DNA from: Reclinomonas americana ATCC 50394
Taxonomy: Eukaryota
NCBI GenBank assembly: GCA_048213135.1
Contig: PS015119.1
Span: 53,746 to 117,699, forward strand
Length of the DNA: 63,954 nt
Reading direction: 5' to 3'
Part shown: positions 39 through 48,643 of the stretch, piece after piece
How the letters are laid out: every line of letters begins with the position of its first letter
Numbering within the stretch: the first letter of the stretch is position 1
The notes under the pieces: model-generated
What the model was told of the DNA's origin: nothing
What the model saw: the letters and a program-made list of their open reading frames with translations, nothing else
The model's database searches: none
Made by a program: the position numbers and the translations under genes

Positions 39-2751
39 GAACTGATTTACTGGAGAAACAAGGTTGGCATCGCAGCGATTGAATGGGGTGTCGTGTCGCA
101 ATCGCCAGCAATGATTAACCACGCAGTCTGCAGGCCAGCACCGCAGAGGCAGACGAGGCCACACTGAAAGCACTGCGCGAGTACCTCGGTGCGCTGCGAA
201 GCAACTCGAACCGTGAGCCGACAGAGGCGGGTGGAGAGGCACCGCCACCACCTCCACCACAGACAGAGTTGTGTAGGTTGCGCGCTGCCGTTGCTTCTGC
301 CTCCCACGACTGATTCCTCCTTTCTCGCAATGACAGGAAACCACCTGAGCGACGACGATCGGAGATGCTACAGACGCACGCGACGCAGGCCATGTCGCTC
401 ATGGAGCAAGTGCGCTCCATTCTCGAGACCGAGTTGTCGGTTTGTGCACCCCACAGGCAGCAAAGTCACTCGCATTCTCCCGCTCTTATGTGAGTCCCTT
501 CTGCATTGCAGTCGGCAAATCCACGAGTAGACCTACTGGAGAGTGCGCTCAATGCGCTCGAGAATGCCATGACAGTGCATGCAGAGTCGCCGCGAGACGA
601 CATTCCTGGGCCCATTTTGAAAATGGAAATGGTACGTATATCGTCACAGCGATTCATCTTGCTTCTTCGGCGCTCACTGTCAGGCAACGTAGGCCACCTC
701 ACCAATGGCCATTCTGAATGCCGACGGGCTGCCAGTATTGGATCCCATTGGCGATCTGGAGGAAGCCACGCGCGAAGTGAAGCAGCTTCGCGAGCGTCTC
801 ACGTTGCGTCCAACCGCTCCACTGCGATCCTCTCTTTTTTTCTTCTTCCATGGCTCACTCACACGGTCGACAGTGAGCGCCACTTCGAGGTGGTGGCACT
901 GAAACGTGAGCTCCTCAATGCTCGCAAGGGTGATCCGGATGCACTGGCCAATGTTGAGCGTATGTACGGCGCCATGTCAACACCGATCTCACGGTCCGCT
1001 GCCCTGGCCAACACGTACGGCATCATCAGTGATGCAGCTCCGACTCCAACTGAGGGCAAGGTGCGTCAGTTACCCTGAAGGAGTGCTCGTACATCCCCTC
1101 TTATCACCTGTGCTGCAGGGCCGCTACATGTCGCCATCACAAGCCGACACCCCGGCTGGCGAAGCAGCGCTGCACTCTCTGCCTGGCGTATCGCGCGCGG
1201 GTCACGTAACGGTGGTCAACAAGCACAGCAAGGCCGTTCGTGTGTCATCACATGGCACACAGACACCACAAATCCGCCACGAGTGCAAACTGTGCAAACG
1301 CATTCTGGCCCTCAACTTGCTGCAAGAGGCTGGCTTTGGGATGCGCACACCCGGCTTCAACGACGCACAAATCAGCCTGGACGAGGAAGATGATGACGGT
1401 GAGGACGATGACGATGGCGCGGGATCGACAGTGAAGGCCGGTCAAAAAATTGTTGCCGACGCGGACTCTGTCTTGAGTTCGCCGCTGGCCACCAGCATGG
1501 TTTGTGCAACAACTGAAGAAAAGCGATTGTGCAATCGGTCTGACAGTGTGTTGACCGACAGCGACGAGGGTCGACGGCGCTGGGAACACCATTGGGCTCG
1601 CGGGCGCGTCGGCCGTCGCACGCAAACCCAGCCGGTGGCAACTTCTCGTCGATTCTCATGTCACCGTCGGGCGGCGGACGACGTCTGACCACCCGGCGAG
1701 CCACGCTCACGGCACATAGCCCCACTGCTGACGACTCGGATTCGCCGACCCGCGAGTCATTGTTGCGGAACGGCCGAACTGCCGGCGGCGGAGGTGGGCT
1801 GATTAATTGTTTTTCCTCGTGTGCGTCGTGCAATCTTCTGACGAAAAGTTGTCGATGTGCAGACTATCCAGCTGCAGAGCGTCTTGGACGCGATCGTTAT
1901 CGCGACTCGGATAACCCAATCGACGACTCATCCGATTCACCTAGGTACCTCGTCGCGCAGCAGCATCTCCTGACAGTATCACTCTCACTGACTTTACTCG
2001 TCACTCCTTTCCGGGACAAGACATCGATCGCGAGATGCCGATCTCGGCGATGGCGGTCGCGGTGGTGAGGACGAGGAGATTACGCCCTCGGGTAGACGTC
2101 GAGAGCGTCGATCGCGCACGGGAACGCCCAGCGGCGGTGTTCGCCTGCCAGACGGCAGCATCTCCGATTGGAATGAGTTTCGCCACCGCCATTGTCGTTT
2201 TTTGTCTTCGTTGTCACACTCACCACAACGTACTCGAACAGAGACGTTGTGCCAGGAGAGAACGGTCTACTGCTGGCGGGAATGCTGGCAGAGCAGTCGG
2301 CCGCCAGCCAGCGCGCACCGAGCAAGATCAAGAAGTTCCCACCGTTGGTTCTTGATCATGTCGCACCTACGCCACTCGAGAAACTGAGTGCCCCAGTTCG
2401 CGTGCGGGAGAAAGGTGCGCCACCTCCATCGACCTCCTCGCCAGTCACCATCTGCTGTCTGCCAAGACGTACGCTCACCCCAAACGCTGCAGCTGTGATC
2501 AACACCAAGCTGTCGCCGTTCTTTGCCGACATGAATGCATGGCGCATGGTCAAGGACAACCGCACCTCGTGGGAGGTCTTGGCGCGTCTGGGTGAGATCG
2601 ACCAGGAGCTGTCTGAGGAGAGCCTCCGAGCCCTACTGGCCGAAGTGGCGCCGCCGACGCACGGACGTCGTGCCTCACCACCACTGGTGGCTCCCACAAA
2701 ACTCACCCGTGGTCGCTCCGCGTCGCGCACTCGCGCCCACAAGTTGCGCAC
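39..2751 (+). CDS. Multi-exon hypothetical protein, partial (5' end outside window, 3' end runs into gap); helical N-terminal part, then low-complexity S/R/D-rich region
   Basis: GT-AG introns join a continuous frame (ASTAEADEATLKALREYL...MLQTHATQAMSLMEQVRSILE...DPIGDLEEATREVKQLRE...QIRHECKLCKRILAL...). No family recognised. Confidence 0.6.
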
Positions 2752-3728: not shown

Positions 3729-6700
3729 TCACGCTCGGGCACCGGTGCCCAAGCGACGAAGCCGATCCAGATACTCAGCCGTCAACTCCGGATACACCTC
3801 CTCCGCCTCCTCGTCGCCACCGTCTCCATCTTCGCCCTCTTCGTCATCATCGTCACTGTCACTGATCGCCCCAGACACTGTTTCAGACGCGCGTCAGTGC
3901 AACACAAAAACAATGACAGGGCACATTCTGTGCGGTCCAGTACCTCGCTGACCGGCAAGTCTGTGACGATTGAGCAGGCCCTGCACGCACACAAGTCACA
4001 CCAGCAAGATACGTACATGAGTGACCGAGAGCGACAAGGACATTGGAAGGGCAAAACGCACCGTGGCCGCCACCACCGACGAAGTGTCCTCCTCCAGTAC
4101 CGAAGCTGTGGCGTCGTCGGTGGTTTCGCTTAGGGCTCGCGAGGCGGCAGCCGACTCCACCAACGCGCCACTGCTGCTCCCCGAAACCGCGTGCCCCGCC
4201 CTCTCGGCAGACGCCACGCGACCTTCGCCAGTCAGGAATGCCATTTTCGCCGCCTCTTCGTCGGTGGTTGACACTTTGAAGTGGGCGAGTCTGTGCACCG
4301 CAAAGTGTTCGCTGAGTTTGCGCGGGGCGATTCAAGACAGAGTCGGTGGGCGTGCGCACACGAAACTTCATCTTCTCTGCAAATGTGCTCGGCGAGTCGA
4401 CCTCGGGATCCGACCGGCGACCAAACAACTTGCGCATGGTGAGCTTCTTGACCACCTGCGGCATAATGTCGGCCAGAATGTCTGCAAGCGCACGCAACAC
4501 AACTGAGAACGCGCGACGGGCCAGGTGAGCGCAAAACGATGAACACCACACACCCTTCTTCGCCTGCTCGCCAAACTCCTTCATCGTCCACGTGACGTCG
4601 TGATACACATGGGCGTGCAGGCGAAGTTTGAGCGAGTCAAAGTCTTTGAAGTCGCGTTCCTGTGTCGCATGGAACTCGATGAGTACACAGACACGAGCGC
4701 ACGCACAAATGCACGCTCAGTGAACGATGACCTTTGGGCCCTTGAAGGACAGCAACAGCGTGGTCTCCTGGATCTTGATGTAGTCAAAGGTCTTGTTGCG
4801 GCGAGCACGATCCTTCATCAGCTCCACAGACTGCTTGGTGTAGAGTCGGCGCTGTGGACTGAACAAGCTCTGTGGGCGCCGTCGCTCCACCGCCGTGGCG
4901 GGCGATGATGACAGCTGTGTGCGACTCGGCACATCGCGGAAACGCGAAACCGATCCACTCGGCTCCGACCCCGGCGACACGTGCGGTGAGTCGCTCGAGT
5001 GCAATGGCGGCAACAGCAGCGGTTGCTGCTGCAGATGCAAGTGCGGCGGTGGTTGATGGTGGTGGTGGTGGTGGTGTTGCGATGGTACTGGCGCTGGACC
5101 GACGTGCATCGCCGGCTCACTGGACACTGCGAGCGGAAATCCTTCCCTATCAGCACTGCGATCGACCACAACATGGAACGTGCGCCACGCCTTACCAGCA
5201 ATCACTTCCTCAAAGTCCGTCACGTACGACTCGGCCGTCTGCAACGACTGCGTGCGCTGTGGTGGAGTGCGACCAGTGCTTCGCGCAGTGGTACTCGGTG
5301 GCGTAATCGGTCCTGCGTTCACCACGACAGCCGCAGCCGTGGCCGCCGCCAGGGCCACCAGAGGGAGCGACGGCGATCCGCCATTCCACCCAACACGAGA
5401 GACGAGACTGGCTTTGGGACGCATCGCTTGCTGGGCCGCCAAGTGCGCCTCCAGCCACCCGGTGAAACTGCGGTGCGGCAGGTGAGACAGGTACATGGCG
5501 ACAAAGTGAAAAACAACATGTGTGCGACGCACCCAGGATGCCCAGTTGTAGGCCGAGAGGCGGAGACGGGGGTAGTCTGACTCGAACTCTGCGCACAACA
5601 CATTGTCTCCATTCAGTGACAAACTGGTGTCCACCCACCACAAGTACCGCCATGTGCGAGCTTCACCTTGCCGTCGGCCTCGGAGAAAAAGTACGACCAC
5701 AGTTCCAGGTACAAGTTGTACGTCAGTTGGATGCGCATGGGGAAGAGGATGACTTGGAACATCTCGAACACCTGGAGGGCATTGAGCACGGCGAGTCACA
5801 TCACGCTCATGGCCTTGCGGAAACGTACCGGAATCCGATTCTTTGGCGGCCGCTGGCGCACATTGAGTTGGAAAACGCCGTTCTTGGTCATGAGGCTCGA
5901 CTGCGCAGTCTCCAGCGACTGCAGCAGCTGCGGGTAGTACGCATTCGGTAGCCGATTCTGCGCCTCCATTCTCCGCACGCGCACCGAGAACTCTGCGTGC
6001 AGGCGTCAAGTCAGCCGTGACCTGCACGGGAATGCACATTCGCAAACATACGCAGCGATGACTTCCACCGGAAAGCAACTCGCCATCCACATTCACCACG
6101 TCCAACTTGGCACTGACAATGGGCTGATGACCTGAAGAATACGCGCACACACGCGCACGTGTCAGCACACACCCTCTGACAAGGAACGAAACAAACTGCA
6201 GCACAACTCTCGTCAATCAACGCCAGCTGCACCAGTGACACTTCGGCGGCAAACACCGTGTGAATGCCTTCGATCTGCGTGTGGTGCTTGTGCTCGGCCT
6301 CGAGACATGCACGCAAGTTCCGTTTCAGCACTTGCAGACGGTGCTGCTGGGCTGAGAGACGCGCCTGCAGCGTGTGCAAGTCGTCGATCTGCCAGAGGCG
6401 CACACTGTGAATATCGCCTTTCCCTCAGCAACCAAACGAGCACCGAGAAACGCAACCGTGTCCAGGTCCACATCCACATCCAGTTCAAACTGAATCGCCT
6501 CCTTCAGGCGATCTACGTTGCGCTCCAACGAGCGCACCATCTTGCTGAGTCGAAGCATTTGATCGTTGCGCCCTTGTCCCAGAATGCGGCTGAACACCAG
6601 CGTGTCCACCTGGTCACGGAAGGAGGAGGACGGTTGAGAACGACAGAGAGAAACGAAACACAGGCTGCACACCATGTCGCCGCACCTTGTCGTCCAGCAG

Positions 6701-7102
6701 CACACGTCGCTCAATCTCTCCAAACAGCACGTCGGCCATGACACTGATGGTGGTGTTGAGCTCGTTGGATGGTACCTGCACGTCCAGATCACCGACGTGG
6801 ATCTGTACCAGGCGCTGCCATGAATCACCACCGCGCCACGTGCGCACACGGACCTGTGGCAATGGAATGGACGTGAGATTTTTTGGACTCTCCGACCGCG
6901 AGTGTGGCATGCAAAAAGTGTTTTCGCACCGACGCCATATAAGGGCATGCCAAGTGCACGAATGGAAATGGTGAATCCTGGAAGGGCGACACTGGACGTC
7001 GTGGCGACAGCGGTTCGCTGTCGTCCGATTGCCTCACGAAGACCTCGGCACATCGTTCCCACACCTCGGCTGCAGCATGAACTAGTTAGTCGCCTTGCAA
7101 CA

Positions 7103-7183
<81 letters not shown>

Positions 7184-10100
7184 TACATACACACACACAT
7201 ACACACACACACAGTGACGAGACGGTGGTGGCCACGCTCACCTACGTGTACCACGCTGCACGACACTGCAGTGGTGGTGCCTTGCAGCTCCACATCGAGG
7301 TCCCAGTCGTCCGGTTCCTCGGGATTGCGGAAGGAGCTGCAGCGCGCAAACTCAGTGGCCAGCAACACGCATCCAGGTCGCCCGTCTTCGCACTGCAGAA
7401 ACATGACTGGGCGCGACAGCCGGATGGAGGTGGCGTACTCACGTATCACCGTCTCTGCCGTACTAGAGCGTGAGCCAGTGCGACCGAATTCTTGCTGCAG
7501 CGCTCTCACCTCGACCTCCCTCAGAAGTGCCGCGACGGTGAGTAAAGGGCGACGAGCCAGCGGCAGCAGCAGATGCTCGTGCATTTGGCATGGAAGCCCG
7601 CGCATTCACCGGCTGTTGCAGTCAAATGTGAGCACGGAATAGAAAGTGTGGGAAGGGAGGGAAAGGGAGAGAGAGAGACCCTATATCGCACCTGTGGTGG
7701 TGACGGGGCAGCGGCTGGACTCGGTAGCGGAGTGAGTTCGTCGTCGAGACCGTCTGGTGAAATGGCGCGATACGAAACGCCGTCAAAGACCCGGTCCAAG
7801 CGGAAATGTCTCTGCAGTACGCAGTACTGGTCGTACATGTCGAGCAGATTGAAGACGACATCACGAGCGCGCTTGTCCCACAAGAAACGAGAGCCGTCGA
7901 CGAAAATGTCCACCTCCGGCACCGACTGCAGTCGGGTCAACGACACAGTGCACGGCATTGTGCCGCGTTCGACCGCCGTCACCGTGGCCTGCCTCGTGTA
8001 CGTCACCAACAGTCGATCGAGTGCCAACATGTGCTGACCAGTGGAACTGAGCGCCTCGTCCATCTCTCCGGCCGGCACACTTGGCCCCGATTCAGACAGA
8101 TCGCCAGCATCGTCAACGACAACGTGCAGCTCGGCCGAGGCACTGCCAGTATCCACACTGAAGCGAGTGACCACCATTGACTCCTCCGGCGGCTCACCTC
8201 CGGAAGCGCCAGCAGCGGCGGCAATCGTCACCGGTGGCTACGACAGAATGAGGGAGTGTTGTGAGGACACGGCGACGCTGGCGACGGATTGCAACCATCG
8301 AGGAGGACAGACCGACGAGGACTCGAGAAGTGACAGCTTTTGCAGCTGCAGCTGGATGTCGGCCTCGTGAGCGCTGACGTGAAACGCGGTCGGTGTATCA
8401 ATGCGCACTGCCAGAACGGCCTCCAGATCGTGAACCCTGGACAGAGATTGTGTCAGGAGTCTGCATGCGCGCGAGAGGGGAACGCGAACACGATTTTCTG
8501 TCGCACTTGGCGTGCAAGGAGAAGCCGTCCACCAGATCGCCCAGAGTGGTCCGTGAAGGCACGATGATGCCGTACTCGCGCACAGGAGGCCGCACTCGAG
8601 GTGGTGGCTTGTCGAAATAGTCGGCCAGCTGGTGATTGTGTGAGCGAGAGAAGCAAAAAGAAGGTGCAGAGTGACGTACGACTACTACACCTTGCCAAAC
8701 CACGAGATGGCGTGTGTGTCCATCTTGACGGTGGGGTGGGCCGGGCGGCAACAGTGGTCCTCGGCCGACTTGATTGAGATCTTGGCAACAAGCGAGCAGC
8801 GCGTCGCCCGCATGCTGCGGTACGTGTCGAGATCGTAGTGTGGCAGGCCGACTGACACCAGTGGGCCCCGCGACTCGACTCGCAGTGTCTCGCGCTCCTC
8901 CACCGTCTTGAGTAGAATTGCCTGGACACGCAAAGAAAATGAGTGTGTATGCTCATGGATGCATTCTGGAGGCTCGCTGAGTGAGCGTCGCGCAACTCTG
9001 AATTGCTTCACGAGCGCATTCTCGTTCTCGCGCAGCTCAACAGGCAACCACTGTAGGGGCACGTAGTGGTGGCCGAGCAGGCACTGAAAGCGCATATAGA
9101 ACCACACTGAGCATCGCGGCAAGTCCACCACCACAGCCGGAGCCAGCGTACGGCTGGTCACTCGAGCTAATGACATGCGAACGAAATGCAGACGCATGCG
9201 CCAGTCACCGGGATCCATGTCCGATGGCGGCTTGCACTCTGCGCGCACGACCACTTAGTGTGTCGAGAAAGACAATGGCGTTGTTCCCCGAAAGTCAACG
9301 TACCGGGTGGCGACGGTGGTGACACAGGAGGCGCAATAACAGAGGGCTCCTGCGGCCACGTGTGCGACTCAAAGTGCAGTAATGGCGGCATGATGGCGGC
9401 ATTGGTGAACTCCAGAGCAATAAAGGGCGCCGACAGCAACGCATGCGATCGCATATCGTCGGGACACTTGCCGAGAAGCACGCGAATCTCCACATCGTGC
9501 AACCGCGCTTGGTATGTGCCGTGCATGCGCAAACGCGCCGCATCCCACCTGAGTGAGGAGCACAAGCATGTCAGCGCCACTCGTTCGCATTGCACATGCG
9601 CAAAGAACCAAGCACTCACCCCGCCAGTGGTGGTGACGGATCGCGTGTGTCGGGAGCCATGGCGGCAATCATCTCACCGGCACTCGAGAACACGGCCGAA
9701 TGCAGTGGACACACGACCAGCGAGGGACGGTGCAGATCCACCGACAGCTCCAGGAAGGTGCGGAATGGTGCAATGCCGACTCGCGACACAAAGATTGATG
9801 ATTGCAGTGCATTCTCGTCGTGAATGCGCACCGCTCGTTTTCGCAGGAAACTGCGTGACGGGCTGGTCCCCTCGTCGAGCAACGCTCGACCCCAGCCAAC
9901 CGGACCACCGGGTCCCGGTAACATGACCACGCGATCCACTTTGCCGTTCGCCGGCGACTGACTCTTGAAGCCCACCATCCGCCCAGTGACGATCAACATC
10001 TGCGGTCGATTGTCAGGGTCGACGAGTGGGAAAAGCTGAGTTACGTGTGACACGCAACCTCGGCGGTGACCATGGGAATCTCCAAAGCACTGGTCGACAG

Positions 10101-12607
10101 GCACAGCTGTGAGAATCGCACCATCATGTCGCAGCCCTTGAGCGAGTATATGGGCGCCAGGTCGAGAGTATAACACCCTGCAGCGCGTGCTTGAGAACAC
10201 ATGCGAGCACTCGCGCCACGCTCGTTTGCAGACTCACCGTCTGGCGACTTGAAGCGGCGCTTGTCGTCCACTGGCACATGCGGCTCCTGACAGTACGGTC
10301 GTTCCGTGGTGAGCGGCGCCGAATCCAGGCGATAGACGGTGCGGAGTTTCTCGCCGTACCGGCGACCGAGAGGAATGATTTCACCATTGGACTCGCCGAT
10401 TTCCAATCGCAGATGCGACCTTGTTTCCGATGCTCGTCTGTCGCGGCATGCACACTAGAATTCAGCCAGTCGTGTCGCATGTGCAGGCAAGGCCACAAGA
10501 AATGCACAAACCGTTTCAACTCTGCAAGGTAGCCATGCTGGTTGGCAAGCTCCAGTCGGTCCAGTGCAGCCTGCACGTGCTCGCTCGGCAGGCCAAGCGG
10601 AGCCAGCTCCTCGCGGAGCATGCGCCGTCGTGCTACCCAGTGCGGCTGCAGATGCAGCAGCAAGACAGAAATGTCAACGGGAGGAGGAAGCTGCCACAAC
10701 AGCAGTGGCATTTTTAAAGCGCAACGTAAAGACTGTTGTGCACGGCAAGGTTGAGCGAGACGGCGCGCTCCACAGACGACTGCAGCAGGTCCACGGTGAC
10801 ATCGGTGCATGTGAATCGGATGGAGACTCGCGTGTCGGTTGCATCGTCCACCAGGTCGCGCATGGCCTCGATGAACCACGTCGCGCTGGCCCAGTCTGTC
10901 GCCGGCACCATCGGTGAGGACAAGTCAGCGTGTGTCTCGCGCGACACAATGTGCGCTCTCACCATCACTGCTATGCGCATGCGTGAGCACGTCATCGCAG
11001 AGATCGATGCCATCCAGAACGTCGCCGAGACGCGTATCGTGCGGTGCGCTGACGTACAGGCCTCGTGCAAACAAATGCACGCACGTCGATACATCCTTGA
11101 GCACCGGCGTTCGCTGCCACGCAATATATGTCGGCAACCCCATCGCGAGGGAGGGAAGAAGCGACACACATGTACACACGCACCGCAAAGTCGGCAGGGA
11201 AGGGATGCTCGCTGGCATGGAACGGGCCGGCGGCAGTGTGCATGAAGGCGAAACCAAGATCCTCCACCCACCCCGCTGGCTTGCCATAGACCACGGCACA
11301 CACATCAGCAGAGGCGGTGGCTTGCGCTACACGTGCGAGCACGCGGGTGAGATGAACAGCAACGTGACAGTCGTACACAGCGACAGATCCAACACGTACC
11401 AGTGGCGTCCACGGTCACAACACGCAGAGTGACGCCATTGCGCAAGTCAGACCCATCCACCACGTCTGCGTGCAGCGACAGAACCGAGTCTTCGGTAAAC
11501 TCGGCGCGCACATCGACATCTCTGCCGTGCACAATCCAAATGTGCTTTCGCTCCACCGCCTCCTCCTCGACTGCGGCGGGCGGCGACAGAGACGAAGGGC
11601 CAGCGGCGGAGCCAGCTGGCTGTGATGATGATGGTACAGGCGACGAGGAAAAGCTGTCTGCACCGACGACCGGAGATGGCGAAGGTGACGACTGCTCGCT
11701 GGAGCGACGTGTGCCACGTCGCTGCGTGGAGCACTCACCCGGTGAGCATTCGTCACCGATGGAAGACACACAAGCGAGCAAGGGCGAACAGCATACGCCG
11801 TACCAGTGGTGACGAACGACTCGTGGATTGCGGTGTGATGTTCTCCACTGTGTCCTCGTGCCGCTTGGTGCTCGTTTTCAGCATTGCAATCAACGAGCGG
11901 ACGCACTGCACAGCACAATGGTAACGTGAGTGCACCCGCAGGTAGACTCTGCGCCACCGCATTCCACACACACACACACACCTCCGTAGCAGCTCCCTGC
12001 TTCCATGCCGTCCACGGCACAAACAGACTCTGCACCTCGAACTCGTGACGCACCACCGGGCTGCGAAGGAGTCAGGCAGTGAGAGAATGGCAGAGTGCAG
12101 CTGATGGAAGCGGAGACACACATTGTCACGGGCTTGATTTGTGCATACAACAACTCGTAACACCGCAGCACGTCGACGAGAACGCTCACTGAGACGCGGA
12201 GGGGTGAGGAACAGCGGAATTAATCGACGTGGAAGTCGGGGACATTTTTCACGCACCACGGGGAAGCATCAATGCAACCCTGATGTCCGCCATGGTGACG
12301 CGCACAGGCGTCTCGCCACCGACAACAGCAGTGGCAGTCTCAAACTGTGCACAGCAGCGTCAAGAATCATGCGGGCATGCAAAAAAGGGGGACAAAACAC
12401 ACGCACCAGCAGGCAGGCACCCGTCGATGACCGCTCCCGTCCAGGTGGCACCATGCTCAAGTCCGGCTGCGCCTCAAACATGATCAACGACGAGCCGACG
12501 CGCACTTGCACTGCGGCCGCTGCAGCAGCCGCAGGATCGCCGAGACTGGAGAGTGACGACGCCGACGACGAAGCGGACGACGACAGTGACGAGAGACGGC
12601 GAAGTCT

Positions 12608-12638
<31 letters not shown>

Positions 12639-32000: not shown

Positions 32001-33968
32001 TTTTTCCTTCTGTTCTCACCCCCATTTTTTGTGCGGTGCAGGACCGACGACGTGGAATTCAAGTTGCACGATCAGAAGAGCCGACTGACGGCAGAGCACG
32101 AAGTTGCGCCTCTGGTCCCCCACTGCAGCATGCAGTGCGCTCTTGCTAATTATGTGTGCGACGCAGGGTGCCATGAGGAAGCTCGAGCAGAGCAAGAACG
32201 ACGAGATTGCACGACTGACTGCGGAACTCAACACCGCCAAGAGCCAATCGGAGGCCAGCAGCCGCTCGCTGCAGTCTCAAATGCAGGAGGAACTCAGTCG
32301 TATGCAAGCGGTGCGTGCTATAATGCTGCAATCCTGTGAATATCAATCTCACCGTGCGTGTGCCCTCGGCAGGAGTTGGAAAGAGTACGCGCCGCGGAGC
32401 AGGGCTCCAAAGACGCACTGCAGCGCAAGCTGGAGAGCGACTTGGCACAACTGCGCTCACAGTTGCGCCCACCCCACTTGTCGTGCTTTGTCTCTCGATG
32501 ATTCGAGTGCTCAATTGCTGCGCTGCGTGCAGACATGCGGCCGAGTTGCAACGTGTGCGTGAAGAGGGTGAGAAGCAGTTGCGCGACGCCGTGGCCAAGG
32601 CGCAACGCGAGGGCGACGATCGTGTGGAGGCCGCAAAGCGTGAGCTGCAGGCGCAGATGCAGGCTGCACTGGCGGTCAGTGTTCATCAGACTGAATAGTT
32701 TGCTGGTTCTTCGCAAAAGCTCACCTGGTTTGAAACGTGTGCAGGATGCCAAAAACAAGGCCGACCAGGCCCTCAGCAAGGCGGCTTCTGACATGGCCGC
32801 GGCCAAGGACGCCGACAAGAACAGTGCGCTCGAAGCGTTGCGAGCGGAATTTGCTCGCGAGAAGCAGGCACTCACGGCTCAGCATGCCACCGTGCTGGCC
32901 GACTGGGAGCGGCGCAAGAGCGAGTGGGCAAGTGAAAAGACCGCCCTCGAAGGCGACAAGACGCGCCTGACGGTAATGCCACTTGCGAACTCGATATGTT
33001 GTTGTTTTGGATGACTTGACTGAGATCTGGCTGGCGCAGAACGACGTGCATCGCGTACAATCGCAACTGTCGCAGCTGGAGAACGACTTGCAGACGGCCA
33101 ACAACGAAATCAGAAGACAACTGAACGAGATGATGGAGACGAAGCGGCAGTTGGTGGATGAGATGGCTCAGCGCGAACGCGAGCTGAAGCACGAGCGAGA
33201 TCGTGCACTGGCCGCTCTCGATGCCTCCCACCAAGGCGTGATTGCACGCATGAATGAGGACTTTGGTCGGGCACGCGAGCTGTTTGAGCAAAAGGACGCG
33301 CTGTGGGCGCAGAAGTTGCGGCGCACGCGCTTGGCTGAGGGGTATGAAGATGAGAATGATGATGATGATGCTCACTGTGTTATTCTGTGCCTTCACCAGA
33401 TATGCGGAACTGGAGGACCGCTGGATGCATCGCGAGAGCCGCCCCGAGGACCTGCAGCTCATTCACGATCTGCAAGAGGAGCTTGGCATGACGCAGGAGC
33501 GACTGGCCAAGGCCATCGAGGACATGAAGCTGTACAAGTTGGAGCTCATCAACCGCGAGGAGTCCTACAACAAGACCTTTGGCAGATCGCCCACTGTCGG
33601 CGTGATGAACCCGGTGGGCGGCAGTAACAAGTCCAACGGCAGCGCTTCTGGTGCCGGCAAGCCGCTGCAGAAGCAAAAATCGGCCACCAACGGCATGCAG
33701 CTGGGAGGTATTCCCGGTGGCCTCCCGCCTGTGCCCTCGGCCGCTGGCAGCAGCGGCCGAGCGCCAAGTGTGACACGTACTGGCCCCGCAGGTCCCTCTA
33801 GGTGAGTGGGTGGGAGTCGGGCGAAATTCACTGCACGTGTGTGTCGATAGTCTCTAACCGAGAACAGTCGGTGGTAATTCTTTATGTTCGTTGGTGTGAC
33901 TGAGCAGGCCACCATCGGTCACCAAGGCATCTGGGTCAACGACTCCGACTCGCCTGCCCCCTAGTTGA
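29083..33968 (+). CDS. FAM184-like coiled-coil protein
   Basis: The spliced N-terminus MSKKIAQLTKVIYHLNTQND and the C-terminus RESRPEDLQLIHDLQ...MKLYKLELINREESYNKTF are FAM184A/B hallmarks. All introns were traced in frame to TGA at 33966-33968. Confidence 0.85.
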
Positions 33969-34045
33969 CAATGTTATGTGAAAAGAAAGCGAAGAAGACG
34001 AGAAAAAGTAGTGTGTGAAATTCGAATGAAAAATGTTGTGCGTGT

Positions 34046-35766
34046 TTACTCATTGAAGCGGGCGGGTGAGAATGGTCGCAAGTCGAACAACGAGCACTCC
34101 CCGTCCAGCAGCAACTCGGCGACAGCAGCACCGGTGGCAGGGGCGTTGAGGATTCCTGGATTGAGGGAAAGAGTGAGATGGCAGAGAAGGATAAGGAATG
34201 GCAAGTGAAAGGCAGACCCCAGCATGAGTGGCCCGACACCATGTGGATGGTGTTGTGGGAACCAGTCAGTGGCCCGACAATGGGCACATCGTCGTCGGTG
34301 GTCGGCAGGAAGCAGGCCTGGATGGTGTCGACGACGGCACCGCCCTCCTCCGGATCAAGCGCGGTGGAGATGGAGGCCGCCACGTGCTTCAGTACCTGTG
34401 GCAACGAATTGATGGTGAGTGGCGAGTGAAGAGGAGACTCGGGAATAGCATGCACCTCGGCAGACGCGGCATCTGGCTCGACTTCGTCGGGCGATGAGGG
34501 CTGCATGCAGGAGAAGATGAGAAGCTCGTTGCATGACACAAGCGCACTCTCGCACTGCTGCCTCACCAGTACAGCACTCCGGTTCGAGGCACCACAGATG
34601 TAGACCTTGCCCGAGGGACGTGGATAGACCTCGGGGTCGGCGTGGCTGCCGTTGGCCAGGGTGAAGTTGAGGAAGAGGGCGGTGCCACTGATGGGGCGTG
34701 CGGGCTCCAGCACAATCGAGTGCGCCTTGAGACCACCGACGCGCGGCACCTGGATGCCGTACTGCTCGAGCTCCCATTCGTCGAGCACGCACCCCGTCCA
34801 CGGCCCCATGGCCAGCACTGCTCGTGCACGTGCGCGGTGAGCGCAAGAATTTATTTGCTTCTTCTCTCAGCACCTGCCACTCACCCACAGTGTCGCACTC
34901 AATAGGCTCGTCGCGCCCATCGACCAACACCCCTCGTGCACGCCCATCGGCCTCCTACTCGCACCAAACACGGTCACAGACAACCGCACAGACGACAGCC
35001 ACACTCACGCAGACTGACGCGCGCGCACCACTCGCAAACCCGTGGCCCGACCGATGACCAGCTCGCACCGCCCAGTGGCCACCGCAGCCTCCATCAACGC
35101 CTCAGTCAGCTTGCACGGATGCACCTGTGCCGTGGTGTCGGGCGTGCCCAGCTGCTCCACCTGCGTCGGCGGCACACGACCATCCAGCCACTCGAGCGGA
35201 CGCTCCTGTGCAGACAACTTGACCGAGGGCGCCACCACGGGCTTGGCGCCGGCCGCACGCTGCTTCGGTGCACGCTCCGATGCACTCACAGACAACTGTG
35301 TGGTGAGGCACGATGAGGAGAAGGGCAGCGATCGCAGCGAGGAGGAGAATCACCGTCTCCAGTCGACGGTACTCGATGTTCTCCGCGCCAAAACGATCCG
35401 CCAGTGTGTTGTGTAACCTGCTGCAGTGGTGAGCACGCACAGAGGAGCAACGGAGGCACGGAAGACGTGACGCACTCGAACGAGATTCGAGCCATGGCTG
35501 CAGACAGAGAGCGAGAGAATATGCGCATAAATGCACGAGTGGAGGCGTGTGGAGGAAGACAAAGAGTGATGCACGCAACGACCCACTGGACCGCCATCGC
35601 ACCACGACTTGGCGAGGAATCCGCCTGCACGCGCAGAGGCAGCCGCCGCCACTCGTGAGCGTTCGAGGCAAATGACGCGCACAGTGGCCGCCTGTGGATG
35701 CGTGCACAGGTGGTAGCAGATGCTGCTGCCAATGACACCGGCGCCGATAACACAGATGGTGACCAT
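34046..35766 (-). CDS. FAD-dependent oxidoreductase, DAO family (yeast Tda3-like)
   Basis: Rossmann motif ICVIGAGVIG, plus AASARAGGFLA, TTAQVHP, VVLAMGPW, DPEVYPRP, QACFLP and GHSCWGILNAPATG. Confidence 0.88.
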
Positions 35767-38148: not shown

Positions 38149-38311
38149 AAGCAGGAGCATTTTCAACATTCTTTCTTTTCCGTCTCTCGTGGCCATTCGC
38201 CAACGCACGGCAGTGAATGCAACTGCTGCTGCTGCTGCTGCTGCTGCTAACTTAACTACTGCATGCTCGTCTATTATATTACTACCAACTACACAGAGGG
38301 CCTCTTCTTCG

Positions 38312-40606
38312 TCAATCAGCCGAGTCGCTGTCGGTCACCGCCCCGGCGCTGTTGTATCGCTCGAGCAGGCGGCCGCGCGGACCGACTGTGCCGGAGAGCT
38401 GCGGGCTGGACTTGGAGCGCATGAACACGCTGCAGAGGCTCTGCTCGCCCGGCACGCCGACTTTGATGGGGAAGCCGTAGTGGCCGGTGCCCTTGTGCAC
38501 GTAGAGTACGTTGGTGCCCTTGGCCCACACGTCGCAGTCGGGGATGCGCGCCAGGCTGACCACGGTGGCGCGCAGGCCCAGTGAGTAGAGGCCAATGTGC
38601 CCGCCGTGCGTGTGGCCCGACAGCACCAGCGCGTTGTAGGTGTCGGGAACAAAGTTAAAGTCTGGTGTGTTGCATAGAAAGAGATTAGACACACCAAGCA
38701 TACACAAACGCACGCACACGCCACACGAAACGTGCAGGGTTGTGCAGCAGCAGCAGTCTGAGGTCGGCGTCAGGGCGCGGAGGGAAACGTTCACACAACT
38801 GCGACAGGAGGCACGAGTGAGAGCGCGCTGCAAAAGAAATCGCTTCTGCCGTCGTCAGCCAAACCTCCTCTACGCGGGCCTTCTGGTTGGCAAAGTAAAA
38901 ATCAAAGCCGACCATCTGCACATTGACTCGGCGACCATGGTCGACCTCTGCGAGAGCGACCCCGGAGTGAGCAAATCCAGGTGTGGTTAGCACAGCACAA
39001 AAACGAAAGACTTGCCGACGCTGATCACTTGCTCCTGGTTGACCAGCAGGGGGATGCCCAACTCCTGGAACACTGTGTGCACGAAGCAGAGAGGATGAGG
39101 AGAAGTCGAGACACGCCACTCTGCACCATGAGTCGACTCACCGCTGGTCACCATGGGAAGGTTCTCGTGATCGTGGTTCTGTTGATAACGGAGAGGTGAG
39201 CCGTGGCGATGCGCGATGCATGCACCAACGCCAACGCAACTCCCAGACACGCGAACACACGGCCACGACGCGCCCATTCCTCCAAGGCGCTGAATGCGCG
39301 CACCAGGATCGGCCGAGCCGAGTCTTGATTGGTCTCGACCGTGAGGTAATCGCCGGCTGCGCAAGAATTCGCTGTCAGTGTGTGCGGACGGAGACGGCGC
39401 GACATGAGACGAACGCACTGAGAATGATGAGGTGCGGATTGCGTGCAATGGCGTCGCTAATGATCCAGCTCAGGCGCTCGGGAGACATGAACGGTCCAAT
39501 GTGCGGATCGGTGATCTGGAAGAGACGCAGCTCGGCGATGTCGTCGTCCGAGTTCACCACCAGCTTACGGTGCTTGTCAACCTCCGAGATGAGATACTCT
39601 ACAGCCGCACCATCACAGTCAGGTGCGCACTCGGCACAGGATTCAAATGCCTCAACACACCTTTGTTACCGCGACGGACGCTGACAAAGGCCGGAGCATG
39701 TCGATCCACATCGTGCAGGCGAAGGCCAAACTGCACAAACAAGTGAGCGATGTGCGCTCACCCTCTCAGTTCCCATTCTACTCACCTCCGACTGGAGCGA
39801 GAATCGGCTCTGGAAGAACGTCAGGCAGCACACGACAAAGAAGAACGCCCACACACACAGTGGGTACCACGGCCGGCCCTGCAGGTGGTCACCGTCAGGC
39901 AACTGCATCGAGCTCACACACAGCCACACAAAGCACCAACCGGCGGGTCGAGGAACAGCAGGCGCGAGATGAGCACCACCGGAAAGGTCAGCCCGACCGA
40001 CGCCTGTGCACGCTTCCGTCAGCACAGCTCCATCGCAAGGGGGAGGGAACAGAACGCAACGACAAACACAAAGCCCGGGTACGTCACAAACACCTTCCAC
40101 AGAGTCGGCTTCACGCCAGGTCGCACATACGACAGCAGCTTGCGCACGTGCACACAAGACAGTGAGCGCACGATCGATGATAATCGCAGCGAGGCAGCTT
40201 ACCTGCAAGAAGGCGAGTGTGACCATGCCAAACCACGCATAGTTCAAGTAGGCGAACCAGAACGGCTGCGTCTGGTCGGCGACAAAGAGATAGTCGCCAG
40301 AGACAAAGTCTGCAACGAAACAGTGAGTGAGTGTGAGAAAGAGAGACAGAAAGAGTGCGATTGGTATGCGGACCTGCGGGTGGTTGTCGACCAAGCCACG
40401 GCTCAAAGCACGCATTGTACACAAACATAAAGACCAGCTGTGCACGCAGAGGTGAGCACACACGAGAGAGACTGAGAAAAAGAGAGGATTGATTGCCGAA
40501 CTTGCGGAACAGCGACAAAGGCCTTTGTGCGCGGGCTCTTGCGCGGTGTAAAGCACACGCTCAGCAGCGCCAACAGGATGCAATAACACGAAAAGATCGA
40601 CAACAT
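38312..40606 (-). CDS. Membrane-anchored calcineurin-like metallophosphoesterase (TMPPE/YkuE-like)
   Basis: N-terminal hydrophobic helices, then the motifs ITDPHIG, TGDY, LGNHDHE (across the 39179-39240 intron), LLLHNP and LSGHTHGG. Confidence 0.85.
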
Positions 40607-40695
40607 CCTCCTCTCACACAACGTGGCAGTCAATGTGTGTTCGGTAATGCGATTGGCCAGGCGTTCTTCTCGCTCGCTCGCAACTCCGATCCTCA

Positions 40696-41491
40696 ATGAC
40701 AAGTGCGCAGCAGGTCAACGACATTTACCGGCTTCCCGAGGGCCTTCCGGTGCCAGAGGACGACGGTGCATGCGATCACTTGCAAGCAGCGATTGTCACC
40801 AGCAGTGTTCTGCTTGGTGTGCACATGGACGACGATGCAGTGGTGCAAGTCGATCTGGGGGCGCTGCGCGGACGCACAGTGGTCTATTGCTTCCCGCGCA
40901 CGGGTGAGCCGGGCAAGGCGGCGTTGGTGGAGGAGTGGAATGAGATCCCGGGGGCACGAGGGTGCACACCACAGAATTGCAAGTTCCGCGATGAGAGCGC
41001 GCGGTTTGCGAGGCTGGGTGTGGCGGTGTATGCGCTGAGTAGGTGCGGAGGGAGAGCACGTGGAGGGAGAGAGAGCAGTGTGCTGATGGATGGGCTGCAG
41101 CATGCCGCTGGATTACACGAAGGCCATGGTCGATCGCTTGCATCTGCCGTACCCGGCGCTGTGTGACACGGACTTTGCGTTTTGTTGCGTGTGTGGGGCG
41201 TGCGAGTGAGAGTTCCTCTTCTGTCTCCTCTCACTGTGTGCAGGCGATGCGCTGCGGCTGCCGACGTTTGAGATTCATCCGGTGGGTGCCGATCGCCCGC
41301 TGCGGCTGTACAAGCGACTGGCGATGGTGCTGCGCGACGGCGTGGTGGAGAAGGTGTTTTATCCGGTGAGTACGCACTGCGTGTGTGCGTCTCTTTGTGG
41401 AGGTCCTTCACTCATGAGAGAGCAGGTGTTCCCGCCCGACAAGTGCGCCGACACGGTGCTGGAGTGGCTCGAGGCAAACCCTGTCATGTAA
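40696..41491 (+). CDS. Peroxiredoxin, BCP/Redoxin type (4 exons)
   Basis: LPEGLPVPEDDGACDHL, VVYCFPRTG, IPGARGCTPQNCKFRD, RLHLPYPALCD and KVFYPVFPPD. Confidence 0.88.
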
Positions 41492-41620
41492 CACGCGCTC
41501 GTACACTCTTTTGTTTACGTTTTTTCCCCCACTTCCCCCTCACGACAGAGAGGCCACAACCAAACAATCATTCCCACCGCAAGCACGCACGTCCGTTTCG
41601 TCTAATTCACCACCGCGTGA

Positions 41621-43564
41621 TTAAAAGCGACCGCGGCCCCTGCATGCACACACAGACACAGTCAGCCACTGGAGCCGGCCGCGCACAAGAGAGAAACGAC
41701 AGACGCAACGGAGGGCGGCGGCCTCGTGGTGCGCCGGGGGCGTTGCCGGGTGCCTCGGACTTGGGGTTGCGGACGGTCTCGTCCACCGACAGAATCATGC
41801 ATGCTGCCTCGGTGGCGCTCTCCCAGGCGTTGCGCTTGACGAGTGCGGGCTCCCACACGAACGACTCGTATGTGTCGCACACACCCTCGTTCTCAATGTC
41901 CACGCCAAATCGTTGCCGGCCTGCACACAGTGAGCAGCCTGTACCAACCAACCCCTACATGCATCAAGCATCGCAGCTCACCCTTGGCATGCGCCTGTCG
42001 CAGCTTGTTCATAATGTCGGTCGAGTCGAAGCCGGCGTTCTCCGCCACCTGTCGCGGAATGATCTCGAGGGCCTTGGCGAACGCGTTGATGATCAGCTGC
42101 TGCTTGCCGGCAATGGTGCGGGCGTGATCGTGCAGGAACTTGCTGACTTCCATCTACCGGCACATAGAGGGCAGAGTGAGTAAAGAGACAGGCACACGGA
42201 GGCGGAAAAACAACCAACCTCAATGGCACCGCCACCGGCCACCAGAGAGCTGTGTTGAATGGCGCGGCGCACAATCATGATGGCGTCGTGCAACGAGCGC
42301 TCCGCCTCATCAATGTACTGCTCGGCACCGCCACGCAGCACAATCGTGGCCGTACGTGTCTACGCAATCACCATCAGCACACCATTCGTCACACACACTC
42401 GGCGCATATCATCACGCAGATGCAAACCTGCGGGCACTCCTTGAAAATGTTGTATCGTTCGTTGCCGACTTGCACCTCCTCGAAGACGCCGCACGTGCCG
42501 AGAATGTCGGCGCCGAGGCGGTTGACCGAGGTCTGCACACGGGCACCCGTGGCCTTGCAAATGCGCGCAGCATCCTACACGTGTGTGCGCAAGATGTCAA
42601 CAACCAATCACAGCACATCACAAGCAACTGAACATGTAAATCAACGCAACATCCTTGCTCACGCGACCGGCGCAGAAAATGTCGCGATCGGCAAAGAACT
42701 GGGTGGCGAGATCGCCAATCGGCAGCGTCGACAGCACAATCTGGGCGCCGCACGCGGCAATCTTGTTCAGCATGTCGTAGATAATGTCCCACTCGGCGTC
42801 GACAATGGCCTGGTACTGGGTGGGGTCGGTGATCTTGACCTCGGCGTTCTCCTTCTCGGCCTTCAGCTCCAGCTCGTGGTTGAGCATAAGGATGTGCGGG
42901 GTGCGGAACGACTTGGGCTGCTGCTCAAAGCCGGCGTACGAGAAGGTCTTCTTGAAGGCGACACCCTCCACCAGGAACGAGTCCTCCATCGAGCCACCCT
43001 GCACCTTCTTGATGCCAATCATGTCGAGCGACAGATCCTCCTCCAGCAGCATGACAGCGTCGACCACCATACGCGAGAAGGTCTCCTTGGAGCCGGCAAT
43101 CAGCTTCGAGTTGAGCGACGTCGACGCGCAGTGCAGCAGCAACTCGCGCTTCTCCGACAGCGGCTTGCCCTCCAAGTGCTCAGCCTGCTCGTGCAGCTTC
43201 TCCAGCGCCTGTGCACACAAACACGAGAGAGAGAGAGAAAAGAGAGAAGAGAGAGAATGAACATTGTGAGATGCAGGGGGAAGTGCCGGGAGTGTGTGGG
43301 GAGAGCACAACGCAACGAGGGAGCAAGCGCGTCGGAAACCATTGATGACGATCTGCGGGTGCACGCCGTCCTCCACAAACTGCTTGGCCTCCTTCAGCAG
43401 CTCGCCAGCCAGCACCGTCACCGAGGTGGTGCCGTCACCGACCTGCAACACGTGCAAGAATGAGAAAGAGAGAAGAAGAAGAGGAGGAGGGAACAAGAAG
43501 AAAGCAACAACTCACCTCTGCATCCTGCGACTTGGCAATGTCGGTCAGCGTGCGCGCAGCCGGG
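41621..43564 (-). CDS. CCT7: T-complex protein 1 subunit eta; 5' end lies in the gap
   Basis: [71 protein letters not shown] and [20 protein letters not shown] at 41623-41621. Confidence 0.93.
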
Positions 43565-44432: not shown

Positions 44433-47284
44433 ATGCTTCGCGCGGTGGCGTCGCGCGTGCACGACATCTTCACGTCGTCGCTATCGACGGTGTTCCAGCG
44501 CGGCTCGTCCTCTGCATCAACCGCGTCCACAACCGCGACATCGCAGCGCGCCATCACCGCCACCCCCAGCAAACCGATCGCGCCTGCTGCTCCCTCTCCA
44601 CCTCCACCACCACCTGCGCCTTCATCATCGTCCTCCTCCTCGCTATGGAGTCGATTGTGCTCGCTGGTGGCGCGCTGGCGGTGGCGATCTGACAGTGAGA
44701 TGGCCAGCACAGAAACCACCATCGCCACCGTCGTCGTCGCAGAACCGGCATCGCCTGTGCGCAAGGTGGCCACTGCGGCAACGAACCGTGTGCGCGCGCT
44801 CCTCTTGCGCCCCTCTGCCGGTGAGTGAGAGGAGTGTGTGTGAAGATTTTTTGTCAGTTTTCAGCGCGCCGAATCTCGGAATGTTCATTTTCGCGCGCGC
44901 GACTCTATCTCTCACACGTGTGTGTGTCTCGTTTGACGTGCAGCGGTCGGTTCCGTGGTCCAGCCGGTGCCGGCGGTGACTCCGGTGTTACCCACCGCCA
45001 CGTCATCGGCGTCGTGGTTTTTGCGACGCCTGTTTCTCTTTTTACCGGGCGGAGGTGGAGGTGGAGGTGGAGGTGGTGGCGCATGGTCTTCGTCGATGTC
45101 TGACAAGACGACTGTCGTCAGTCAACAACAACAACAACAGCAACCGGTAGCGATGCCGGTGCCGTTGAACGCGTCGCCGGCGCGATCCACCGGTGGACTT
45201 CATGTTTCCGTTGCGTTTCTTTCACTCGGTCTACAGTGGTTTTTCCGCGTTCATTTGTTGTTGACTGTGGAATGGTGCTCGCAGTGGCGCTACGTGTTGG
45301 ACGGAACGCGTACCATGTTTTCTGGTGCTTACGGGCTGCTGCCGTCGGTGGCTGGTCCTGTGCGGAATGTTGCGTCTTGTTGTTGTGTTTTGGTCCCGAG
45401 TCGCGTGTGTGTGCGTAAACCAACATGTGTTCGTGCGTGGTTAGTTGATGCGTCTATCGGAGCCGGTGGTGTATGCGCGCTCGTTCCCGCACACGCGGTC
45501 ATTGTTCCGCGATCTGGATATCGATTGGTTGCATCCACCGCGCATGTTGAGTGCAGTGTCGATCGCGACCGTGTGTATTGTTGGTCGCCACTAACACGCA
45601 CCACTGAGCAGGTTGGTGTTTGTGGGCAAGCGTCCGCTGCAGGGCGAGTTCCACTACATTCGCTCCGGTACGCCACTCGCCGTGTGTGACGAGGTGCTCG
45701 TGACTGCTGACGCTTCTTTCCGCCCAGTGCTGCGATTTGTCAATGCGGAGCATGTCGGCGTCAAGCTGATTGGTGCGTCCCCCTCGTCGCCTGACCAACG
45801 CACTGCATCTGATGTATTCTTAATTCAACCTGTCTCGCGTGCAGTGTTCGATCGCTCAATCTTTGGCTGGCGATCATCGCGTGTGTTGTACTTTGATTTN
45901 NNNNNNNNNNNNNNNNNNNNNNNNNNNNNNNNNNNNNNNNNNNNNNNNNNNNNNNNNNNNNNNNNNNNNNNNNNNNNNNNNNNNNNNNNNNNNNNNNNNN
46001 NNNNNNNNNNNNNNNNNNNNNNNNNNNNNNNNNNNNNNNNNNNNNNNNNNNNNNNNNNNNNNNNNNNNNNNNNNNNNNNNNNNNNNNNNNNNNNNNNNNN
46101 NNNNNNNNNNNNNNNNNNNNNNNNNNNNNNNNNNNNNNNNNNNNNNNNNNNNNNNNNNNNNNNNNNGCAGCAGCAGCAGCAGAAGCAGCAGCAGCAGTCG
46201 CGACCGCCTGTGGCAGCGGCACGCAGACCCCCGACGAAGCAGAAGAAAAGCGAACCCGCCGTGTCGCCAGCGGCGGCGATTCTGGCGCGTCGTGCGGCTG
46301 AGATACAAAGTAGTCCTGCGCGACCGCCAGTTCGTGCATCACAGCCGCCACCACCACCGCCACCACCATCAGCACTGCCGCGTCCACCGCCACCACCACC
46401 ACCACTGCCGCTACCACCGCCGCCGCGGCGGTCGCCAGCTGTGCTTCGAACGCCGTTGTCGTCTGGGATGGCGGTGTGTGCCTCTGCGTCCTCTCCTGCT
46501 CTCGTCACACTGCCAATCTGACTCGTGTCCCATGCAAAGCAGCGATCACCAGGGCGTGTGAATCTGGCACAGTCCATTCTGGCCAAACGACGGTTGGCTC
46601 TCGAGCGAGGTGGCTCATCGGCGAGCACCGCCCTCAGTGCGCAATCCATCCTGGCCAAGCGAAGGGAAGAAGCACGACACTCGCCACAGCCGCCGAAATC
46701 AGCGGTCGCCATTCTTCGTGCGCGGCAGGAGAAAGTGCTGGGCAAGCGACCCTTGTCGCCGGCATTCGACGACTCGGATGGAATGACAGATGTGGAGACG
46801 GCGCGACAACCAGCGGCACGGCGACCACCGTTCAGTCGGTATGGTGGTGGTGGTGGCAGTGCATCCGATGACGCCGCTGAAGAAGACATGTGAGGCGTTG
46901 CTTGTTCCCTGTACTCACCCCAGTTGCTGCGTCACTCACCGCACGTGTGCAGCTTGACCGCACAACTTAGCGGTGATCGCTACCGAGCACGTCTCTTCAT
47001 GCAAGTGCGCGACCCTGAACTGCGCAAGAAACTGTGGACAGCCAAGGAGGACATTGTGTGCGTTCCTGCCTTTGTTGTGCAATGTGTGTGTGTGTGTGTG
47101 TGCGTGCATGCTCACGGTGTTTGTGAACAGGCTGGCCAACAGATTCCGTGGCGTCACCGACCGCGAGGTGGTCTCCAGTGAGGATCTGAAGTACACGGCC
47201 AAACTTCTCGGCCGCGATGTGGACGATGTATGGCGGCGTGTTGAATATCTGGGCTGGCGGGTGGCCCACACCTCGTACCCATAG
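44433..47284 (+). CDS. Hypothetical P/S/Q-rich protein with a C-terminal Myb/SANT-like helical domain (gap inside)
   Basis: Spliced exons in frame. The last exons give KKLWTAKEDIVLANRF...LKYTAKLLGRDVDDVWRRVEYLGW, resembling the WTxxED...A..LGR Myb pattern. Confidence 0.5.

Positions 47285-48594: not shown

Positions 48595-48643
<49 letters not shown>

Follow-up and report, generated by a model that had tools for sequence, protein, structure and literature searches.

A stretch of 63,954 bases from Reclinomonas americana ATCC 50394 (contig PS015119.1, positions 53,746 to 117,699; hereafter the window) is gene-dense nuclear DNA of an intron-rich protist, and two classes of 5' splice sites (donors) are intermixed in its genes. 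The ordinary class, A, is exemplified by G/GTGCGT and the other one, B, by GTTGCGT preceded mostly by a base other than G (the slash marks the exon end). We show that class B donors are genuine cleavage sites, that they are abundant and that most genes contain them. To judge from the composition of the flanks, class B is class A displaced by one base into the intron, and a +1-shifted pairing register of the U1 small nuclear RNA (snRNA) is, with moderate confidence, the best-supported mechanism.

Two classes of donors in the same genes

Class A (n = 71) was defined by G at +5 and has the form (A)G/GT(G)(C or A)G(T), with GTGCGT (10), GTGAGT (9), GTGCGA (6), GTACGT (5) and GTGTGT (5) as its commonest hexamers. 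Donors such as G/GTGCGT and G/GTGAGT are typical of GC-rich genomes. Class B (n = 29) was defined by T at +3 and G at +6 together with a base other than G at +5; its form is H/GTT(G or T)(C)G(T), and it comprises GTTGCG (19), GTTTCG (6), GTTGTG (2) and GTTGAG (2). T at +3 is an insufficient mark of class B, as GTTTGC, GTTTGT, GTTGGT, GTTAGT and GTTCGT follow G and have G at +5. The other 39 donors, which fit neither class, are mixed and probably enriched in parser errors, although one of them (35353) was pinned by homology. Class B thus accounts for 29 of the 139 short introns (≤135 nucleotides, nt), or for 29 of the 100 introns with a recognisable consensus.

Introns were called by a dynamic-programming gene parser that relied on self-trained codon log-odds, admitted GT..AG introns alone, weighted them by a length prior and rewarded the branch motif. 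In the donor-model-free parse, codon scores, GT..AG, branch motif and intron length were used and donors were not scored; the support of a donor, in bits, is its margin of coding evidence over the next in-frame GT in this parse. Since coding evidence was poor at choosing among neighbouring in-frame donors, a donor table was added to the parser; it was trained iteratively on intron bases +3 to +6 alone, so that exon bases never entered the score (expectation-maximisation, EM, parse). The EM parse converged at 142 introns, of which 139 were ≤135 nt in length, and reproduced all seven junctions of the chaperonin gene CCT7. Intron length was very uniform (mostly 55-80 nt, median 67 nt, interquartile range 62-74), and a branch motif CTCAC/CTGAC (CTSAC) was located about 10-30 nt upstream of a YAG acceptor (CAG or TAG); 46 of 65 short introns contained CTNAY, compared with 362 of 1955 random AG contexts. 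In addition, many introns were rich in TG/CA or CT repeats.

The firmest junctions are those pinned by homology, for which spliced gene models were aligned to intron-less or complementary DNA-derived homologues and no gap was allowed within ±6 residues of the junction. The homologues were P0002, P0003 and P0005 for CCT7, the bacterial proteins P0121, P0122 and P0124 for a metallophosphoesterase, and P0241 for a DAO/TDA3-like oxidoreductase. Five class B donors in these three unrelated genes, all on the minus strand, were fixed to the base without gaps (43316, 42650, 39240, 38731 and 35579; sites are named by their first intron base). In CCT7, C/GTTGCGT at 43310-43316 opens a 108-nt intron and T/GTTGCGT at 42644-42650 a 76-nt intron; both were gap-free against the three homologues, and the second was also recovered by the donor-model-free parse. 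In the metallophosphoesterase gene, A/GTTGCGT at 39234-39240 (62-nt intron) separates an exon ending in ACLG from one starting with NHDHE, and C/GTTTCGT at 38725-38731 (70-nt intron) is a newly found site; both were gap-free against all three bacterial proteins. In the oxidoreductase gene, C/GTTGCGT at 35573-35579 opens an 82-nt intron that is followed by a 22-nt micro-exon, and the alignment to P0241 was gap-free both here and at the next junction. The CCT7 donor C/GTTGCGT at 41703-41709 (minus strand, 70-nt intron) is less firm, having one gap within ±6 residues; it lies in the Arg/Gly-rich C-terminal tail, the end of which is homologue-like. Nine pinned donors were of class A or of other form: G/GTGAGT at 43515, G/GTTTGC at 42427, G/GTTGGT at 42218, G/GTGAGC at 41981, A/GTGCGT at 39418, G/GTGAGT at 39141, G/GTTTGG at 38864 (aligned without gaps to two of the three homologues), A/GTGCGT at 35475 and G/GTGATT at 35353. 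Among pinned junctions, G preceded none of the six GTT..G donors and 7 of the 9 others (p = 0.007; 0/5 and p = 0.021 when 41709 was left out).

GTTGCG was the commonest donor hexamer in the EM parse, GTTGCGT being the commonest form of class B, and it also ranked first in every donor-model-free parse (11 of 143, 13 of 207 and 14 of 151 introns). On the assigned gene strands, it was concentrated at donors in the donor-model-free parse, where it began 14 of 151 introns compared with 42 of 3211 sense-strand GT sites (p = 1.6e-8). Class B donors were present in 10 of the 12 gene regions, mixed with ordinary donors within genes, and both classes had a median intron length of 67 nt and a common branch motif and acceptor. 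The two classes share the same UGCGU core as well, and differ in that class A is cut one base further 3' relative to this core and has G at -1 in 82% of cases.

The exons downstream of class B introns started with G in 15 of 29 cases and those downstream of class A introns in 19 of 71 (p = 0.02); a purine came first in 25 of 29 and 41 of 71, respectively (p = 0.01). Boundaries misplaced by one base (TT..GG introns) were considered and ruled out generally, since no more than those 15 of 29 class B introns are followed by an exon with an initial G. As a separate observation, the class A donors lacking G at -1 (e.g., 39418, 35475, 13251 and 47058) mostly read GTGCG(T/A/G), which is class B minus one T. 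This suggests that the classes may interconvert simply, by a one-base insertion or deletion within the intron: a T inserted after GT would turn H/GTGCGT into H/GTTGCGT and leave the exon untouched.

One-base displacement of the donor flanks

The shift tests rely solely on positions -1, -2 and +7, which are outside both the donor table and the class definition. G was found at -1 in 4 of the 29 class B donors, whereas it was present in 58 of the 71 class A donors (Fisher p = 2.5e-10, EM parse). The donor-model-free parse gave 3 of 21 and 54 of 70, respectively (p = 3e-7), its subset with ≥3 bits of support gave 2 of 12 and 24 of 28, and the addition of the off-parse sites 38731, 35579 and 277 brought the class B count to 5 of 32. 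Thus, ordinary donors do mostly follow G, and the association of GTT..G donors with other exon-terminal bases is real, as the original prediction had held, but it is not absolute. Site 277 had been put forward as the sole G-preceded GTTGCG donor; the parse yielded four more, 6456, 10058, 13520 and 13989, called from frame and length arguments, so the non-G rule was overstated.

The composition at -1 of class B (A13 C6 G4 T6) was like that at -2 of class A (31/12/13/15 in the same order; p = 0.94), A making up 45% and 44%, respectively, and it differed from that at -1 of class A (p = 9e-9). On the intron side, T occupied +7 in 23 of the 29 class B donors, compared with 42 of 71 at +6 of class A and 14 of 71 at its +7 (p = 3.6e-8 for the latter), and G was present at +4 of class B in 79% and at +3 of class A in 62%. 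Moreover, A at -1 was enriched at class B donors relative to non-donor copies of GTTGCG (13/29 versus 8/52, p = 0.007), and the donor-model-free parse repeated the displaced pattern. These results suggest that class B corresponds to class A with its consensus set one base deeper in the intron.

Roca and Krainer reportedly described, in 2009, human atypical 5' splice sites that are recognised by +1-shifted pairing to U1. As far as the available portions of the literature describe such sites, class B resembles them in that GU is cleaved, the consensus lies one position deeper in the intron, U stands at +3 and G at -1 is not required; if the U1 of the host has the canonical 5' end, more potential pairs would form in the shifted register as well. 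Unlike the human sites, which are portrayed there as rare and of the AAGU type, class B makes up 29 of 139 short introns, has a GC-rich UGCGU and occurs in 10 of 12 gene regions. In the available part of PMC4856993, the shifted register is described as one in which every pair between the 5' splice site and U1 is moved by one position, and a separate register with a bulge at +2/+3 is described as well. Class B is like the human bulge +2/+3 sites presented in that part in having an extra U after GU and an intron-side consensus displaced by one base, and unlike them, as their exon register is canonical, in losing G at -1 and taking on the profile of the canonical -2.

A tunicate paper of 2026 (PMC13326754), in the part available, raises the shifted register simply as a possibility. 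Andalucia godoyi, the one jakobid for which a nuclear genome paper was found and perhaps a member of a related lineage, is intron-poor according to the part of PMC7050145 at hand, where no donor consensus is stated; it has 134 introns in 864 genes, with an average length of 151 bp. Its introns are GT...AG as in the window, but in the window they recur every few hundred bases. Among the papers listed on GTTGCG/GUUGCG donors, shifted U1 pairing or registers, and jakobid introns, supplementary files apart, we found no report of an abundant displaced donor class. Recognition of this kind is known from rare human sites; the novelty would lie in its extent, about one intron in five, and in its GC-rich protist form.

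Proposed U1 pairing register and alternative explanations

In the proposed mechanism, the 5' end of a single U1 snRNA would read class B donors one nucleotide out of register, with C9, A7, C4 and A3 facing +1 G, +3 U, +6 G and +7 U, respectively, and the cut would still be made at GU. The exon base at -1 would face U10, which would explain why -1 of class B copies the A-rich canonical -2. Pairs were counted with the canonical U1 5' end as printed in the available part of PMC4856993, from which the U1 of the host may differ. Class B donors formed on average 6.45 pairs in the shifted and 4.24 in the canonical register (24 of the 29 had more when shifted, 5 had equal numbers and none had fewer), whereas class A donors formed 7.37 in the canonical and 4.79 in the shifted register. 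The suggestion made in the original prediction that shifted U1 pairing is a major mode in this organism is consistent with the abundance (29/139) and the composition of class B, while the shift in the pairing of U1, and possibly of U6, is itself something that we infer.

Several observations weigh against this account. GTTGCG occurs 74 times on both strands of the window compared with 59.7±7.7 times in shuffles that preserve dinucleotides, of which 3 in 100 attain this number; an enrichment of about 2.3-fold calculated from mononucleotide composition was dropped as too generous in the light of these shuffles. The hexamer is preceded by G in 11 of its 74 copies overall and in just 6 of 52 non-donor copies, so a non-G base is not unusual for the hexamer itself, and G at -1 is no rarer at class B donors (4/29, p = 0.74). 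As the bare hexamer is near chance and rarely preceded by G, the case depends on these sites being donors. Most junctions were called ab initio by a self-trained parser on a single 64-kb window, coding-only support was below 3 bits for most donors, with neighbouring in-frame donors seldom separable, and the coding-only parse mis-called the homology-pinned site 43316. Furthermore, there is partial circularity, as the classes are defined on +3 to +6, the same positions as in the EM donor table. C at +5 of class B (86%) exceeds C at +4 of class A (42%, p = 0.001), so that the proposed equivalence of GTTGCGT to the donor consensus displaced by one base fits at -1 and +7, whereas at +5 class B is narrower than a pure shift would give. 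Finally, the duplexes predicted with canonical U1 are weak for class B (mean -2.1 kcal/mol versus -6.6 kcal/mol for class A), and RNAduplex sets C4 of U1 on +6 in just 10 of the 29 donors.

Being tighter, the class B motif would also be compatible with a divergent U1, a second U1 or some part played by U6. The most serious alternative is a dedicated or divergent snRNA (a U1 variant, a non-canonical U1 5' end, or U6/U5-driven reading), variant snRNAs having been named in the original prediction too, for which GUUGCGU would be in its own normal register. The prevalence of C at +5 (86%) and of T at +7 (79%), the weak canonical-U1 duplexes and the expressed variant U1 snRNAs known in humans (according to the available parts of PMC3561869 and PMC10870369) all speak for it. 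However, the exon-side and +7 compositions of class B are indistinguishable from those of class A moved by one base, which is explained most simply by one pairing partner, and intron length, branch site and acceptor are common to both classes, which are intermixed in the same genes; we therefore regard a dedicated snRNA as unlikely. A bulged register, in which U1 would pair canonically at -1, +1 and +2, one U of +2/+3 would be bulged, and +4 to +7 would pair as the canonical +3 to +6 do, would account for +4 to +7 of class B no less well than the shift, and the bulge +2/+3 register has been validated for some human sites in the account available to us (PMC4856993). Yet it would keep -1 opposite C9 and hence predicts G there, contrary to the 4 of 29 class B donors as against 58 of 71 in class A, and the class B -1 instead mirrors -2 of class A (A at 45% and 44%). 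The lost preference for G thus favours the shifted register over a bulged U, and makes the bulge, in our judgement, quite improbable.

That the junctions had been mis-inferred and that GTTGCG merely lies near true donors by chance or composition might be suspected from the hexamer count near the shuffled expectation, from the low coding-only support at many sites and from the three previously predicted sites that turned out to be ambiguous or unsupported. This explanation is largely refuted and has very little probability left: five junctions in three unrelated genes are base-exact by gap-free homology, the enrichment at donors (p = 1.6e-8) was obtained without any donor model, and most class B introns offer no class A-type GT among their frame-compatible alternatives. 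We are accordingly highly confident that the donor class is real. The distinct and tight donor motif could also point to a separate kind of intron, either U12-type, spliced by the minor spliceosome, or introner copies. Nevertheless, the branch (CTSAY in 20 of 29), the length (median 67 nt) and the acceptor of class B are the same as in class A, and all-against-all blastn of the 139 introns gave only simple-repeat matches of 13-27 nt, which renders this the least credible of the explanations. Nor does the class B donor resemble the U12-type donor motif.

The +1-shifted register of U1 is thus the mechanism that we prefer. The broader proposition, that this lineage routinely places its 5' cut independently of the register in which the U1 (perhaps U6) helix forms, or else carries a second U1 dedicated to GUUGCGU donors, we hold to be evenly balanced. 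If true, the shifted register would be a normal genome-wide mode of splice-site recognition for a fifth to a quarter of introns and not a rare human exception. The choice of the cut site when the U1 helix has several registers is still argued from few human sites and reporter mutants, and an organism with short, intron-defined introns, whose genes commonly mixed both registers, would be well suited to testing it. There one could ask if U6 and U5 are shifted along with U1, what determines the cut and how introns move between the classes. For annotation, gene finders with a single donor matrix would mis-call about a fifth of the junctions of such genomes; the coding-only parser erred at 43316 and at 38731, the latter being a homology-pinned site that the gene parse overlooked.

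Individual class B sites

The 18 GTTGCG hexamers listed in the original prediction were all found in place and on the right strand. Among the 17 said to follow a base other than G, 15 were supported as donors: four by gap-free homology, 41709 by homology with one gap, and ten (803, 30271, 31760, 32103, 32462, 41184, 8996, 24529, 26014 and 26550) by the parse. For GTTGCGG at 33315-33321 on the plus strand the parse favoured G/GTATGA at 33342, which is in frame, 9 codons away and uses the same acceptor, leaving this site ambiguous. GTTGCGT at 45369-45375 on the plus strand was unsupported, as every upstream frame had a negative coding score and the interval 45-140 nt downstream lacked a branch with YAG. 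As for the related donors that had been named, 2177, 4366, 31034, 31630, 63336, 29135 and 29481 were recovered by the parse, while 29310 was ambiguous with respect to 29313, one codon off; the GTTTCG hexamers at 4366 and 63336 do exist, but on the minus strand, which had been left unsaid.

On the plus strand, the best supported class B donors were C/GTTGCGT at 803-809 (71-nt intron, 9.6 bits), the sole frame-compatible donor with a YAG acceptor, T/GTTGAGT at 29481-29487 (71 nt, 8.7 bits) and T/GTTGCGT at 30271-30277 (73 nt, 6.1 bits). The parse further gave A/GTTGCGT at 31760-31766 (66 nt, 4.3 bits), A/GTTTCGT at 31630-31636 (67 nt, 4.1 bits), C/GTTTCGT at 31034-31040 (59 nt, 3.7 bits), A/GTTGTGT at 29135-29141 (72 nt, 2.3 bits) and A/GTTGCGC at 32462-32468 (71 nt, 1.4 bits). 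Lower values were obtained for T/GTTGCGT at 41184-41190 in an AhpC/TSA-like gene (60 nt, 1.0 bit, two alternative donors), A/GTTGCGC at 32103-32109 (64 nt, 0.8 bit) and A/GTTTCGC at 2177-2183 (65 nt, a weak 0.5 bit). T/GTTGAGT at 45546-45552 (66 nt) was called by the EM parse alone. G/GTTGCGC at 277-283, outside the parse at the window edge, is a plausible donor: its 60-nt intron has a CTGAT branch and connects open coding segments on either side in phase 2.

On the minus strand, the donor-model-free parse recovered A/GTTGCGA at 26008-26014 (61 nt, 7.6 bits), A/GTTGCGT at 24523-24529 (67 nt, 4.7 bits), A/GTTTCGT at 63330-63336 (79 nt, 4.4 bits) and T/GTTGCGT at 26544-26550 in a kinesin/coiled-coil gene (64 nt, 3.3 bits). 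C/GTTGCGT at 40054-40060 (57 nt, coding-only support 0.1 bit) and C/GTTTCGT at 7772-7778 (64 nt) were found in the EM parse alone. At A/GTTGCGC, 8990-8996 (75 nt, EM parse), the donor-model-free parse chose 9011. A/GTTTCGT at 4360-4366 (76 nt, EM parse) is the sole frame-compatible donor with a YAG acceptor, and A/GTTGTGC at 6201-6207 (76 nt, parses) has many alternative donors. The four G-preceded sites, each G/GTTGCGT, are located in a Hobbit/BLTP2-like gene. The one at 6450-6456 (68 nt) was found in all parses, and a frame shift between two well-scoring exons demands an intron there; that at 10052-10058 (59 nt, 3.6 bits) would meet a stop after 5 codons of read-through and has one other frame-compatible donor. 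The intron at 13983-13989 (66 nt, parse) is in frame, lacks a stop and could be retained, and the site at 13514-13520 (57 nt, EM parse alone), with a poor upstream coding score, is the weakest of the G cases.

Gene content of the window

The best-conserved gene of the window is CCT7, on the minus strand, whose top named relative was the CCT7 protein of Seculamonas ecuadoriensis, a jakobid (78% identity across an exon of 186 residues), other matches being mostly near 60-70%; the host is therefore probably a jakobid or a relative. A metagenome scan for close CCT7 relatives kept 80 loci, none of which was suited to a comparison of orthologous introns, since the best identity of 70% is too distant. 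An Rfam scan of the window gave no family at the gathering score, and hence no snRNA gene within it. Single-exon Pfam scans named few genes (AhpC/TSA and DAO, both weak, Methyltransf_16, MINDY-3/4 and Hobbit/BLTP2), and these matches fixed no splice junction. Likewise, the AhpC-like exon had one weak match in PDB (E 0.09), and 41184 was not pinned thereby.

The Hobbit/FMP27/BLTP2-like gene is very large (3729-15546, minus strand), and Pfam PF10344 was recognised in a single C-terminal exon (E 5.4e-07). A phmmer search of 1.84 billion proteins with a 120-residue internal exon of this gene returned two weak matches (E 1.7e-4 and 4.3e-4) and none closer than E 1e-4; because no close homologue was found, its G-preceded GTTGCG donors were not pinned by homology.

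The metallophosphoesterase gene (38312-40606, minus strand) has its closest relatives in bacteria, the named matches being proteins from Polyangiaceae, Myxococcales and Sandaracinaceae metagenome-assembled genomes. It is 65% identical to bacterial relatives over an 81-residue exon, and 120 of 240 aligned columns are identical overall. Yet it contains at least 5 spliceosomal introns with donors of both classes, and it is a candidate for bacterial-to-eukaryote transfer followed by intron gain. The 22-nt micro-exon of the DAO/TDA3-like gene (35476-35497, minus strand) is flanked by two introns, that of 82 nt with its class B donor and one of 58 nt with a class A donor, and is confirmed by its gap-free alignment to P0241.

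The window includes ten N blocks summing to 6,134 bases. At 48001-52000 the G+C content is 0.33, compared with about 0.5-0.6 elsewhere, partly owing to N blocks, and there is little coding signal. A perfect 283-nt direct repeat (15282-15564 and 16110-16392, plus strand) immediately flanks the N block at 15565-16109; duplication during assembly or gap closure is its most likely origin.

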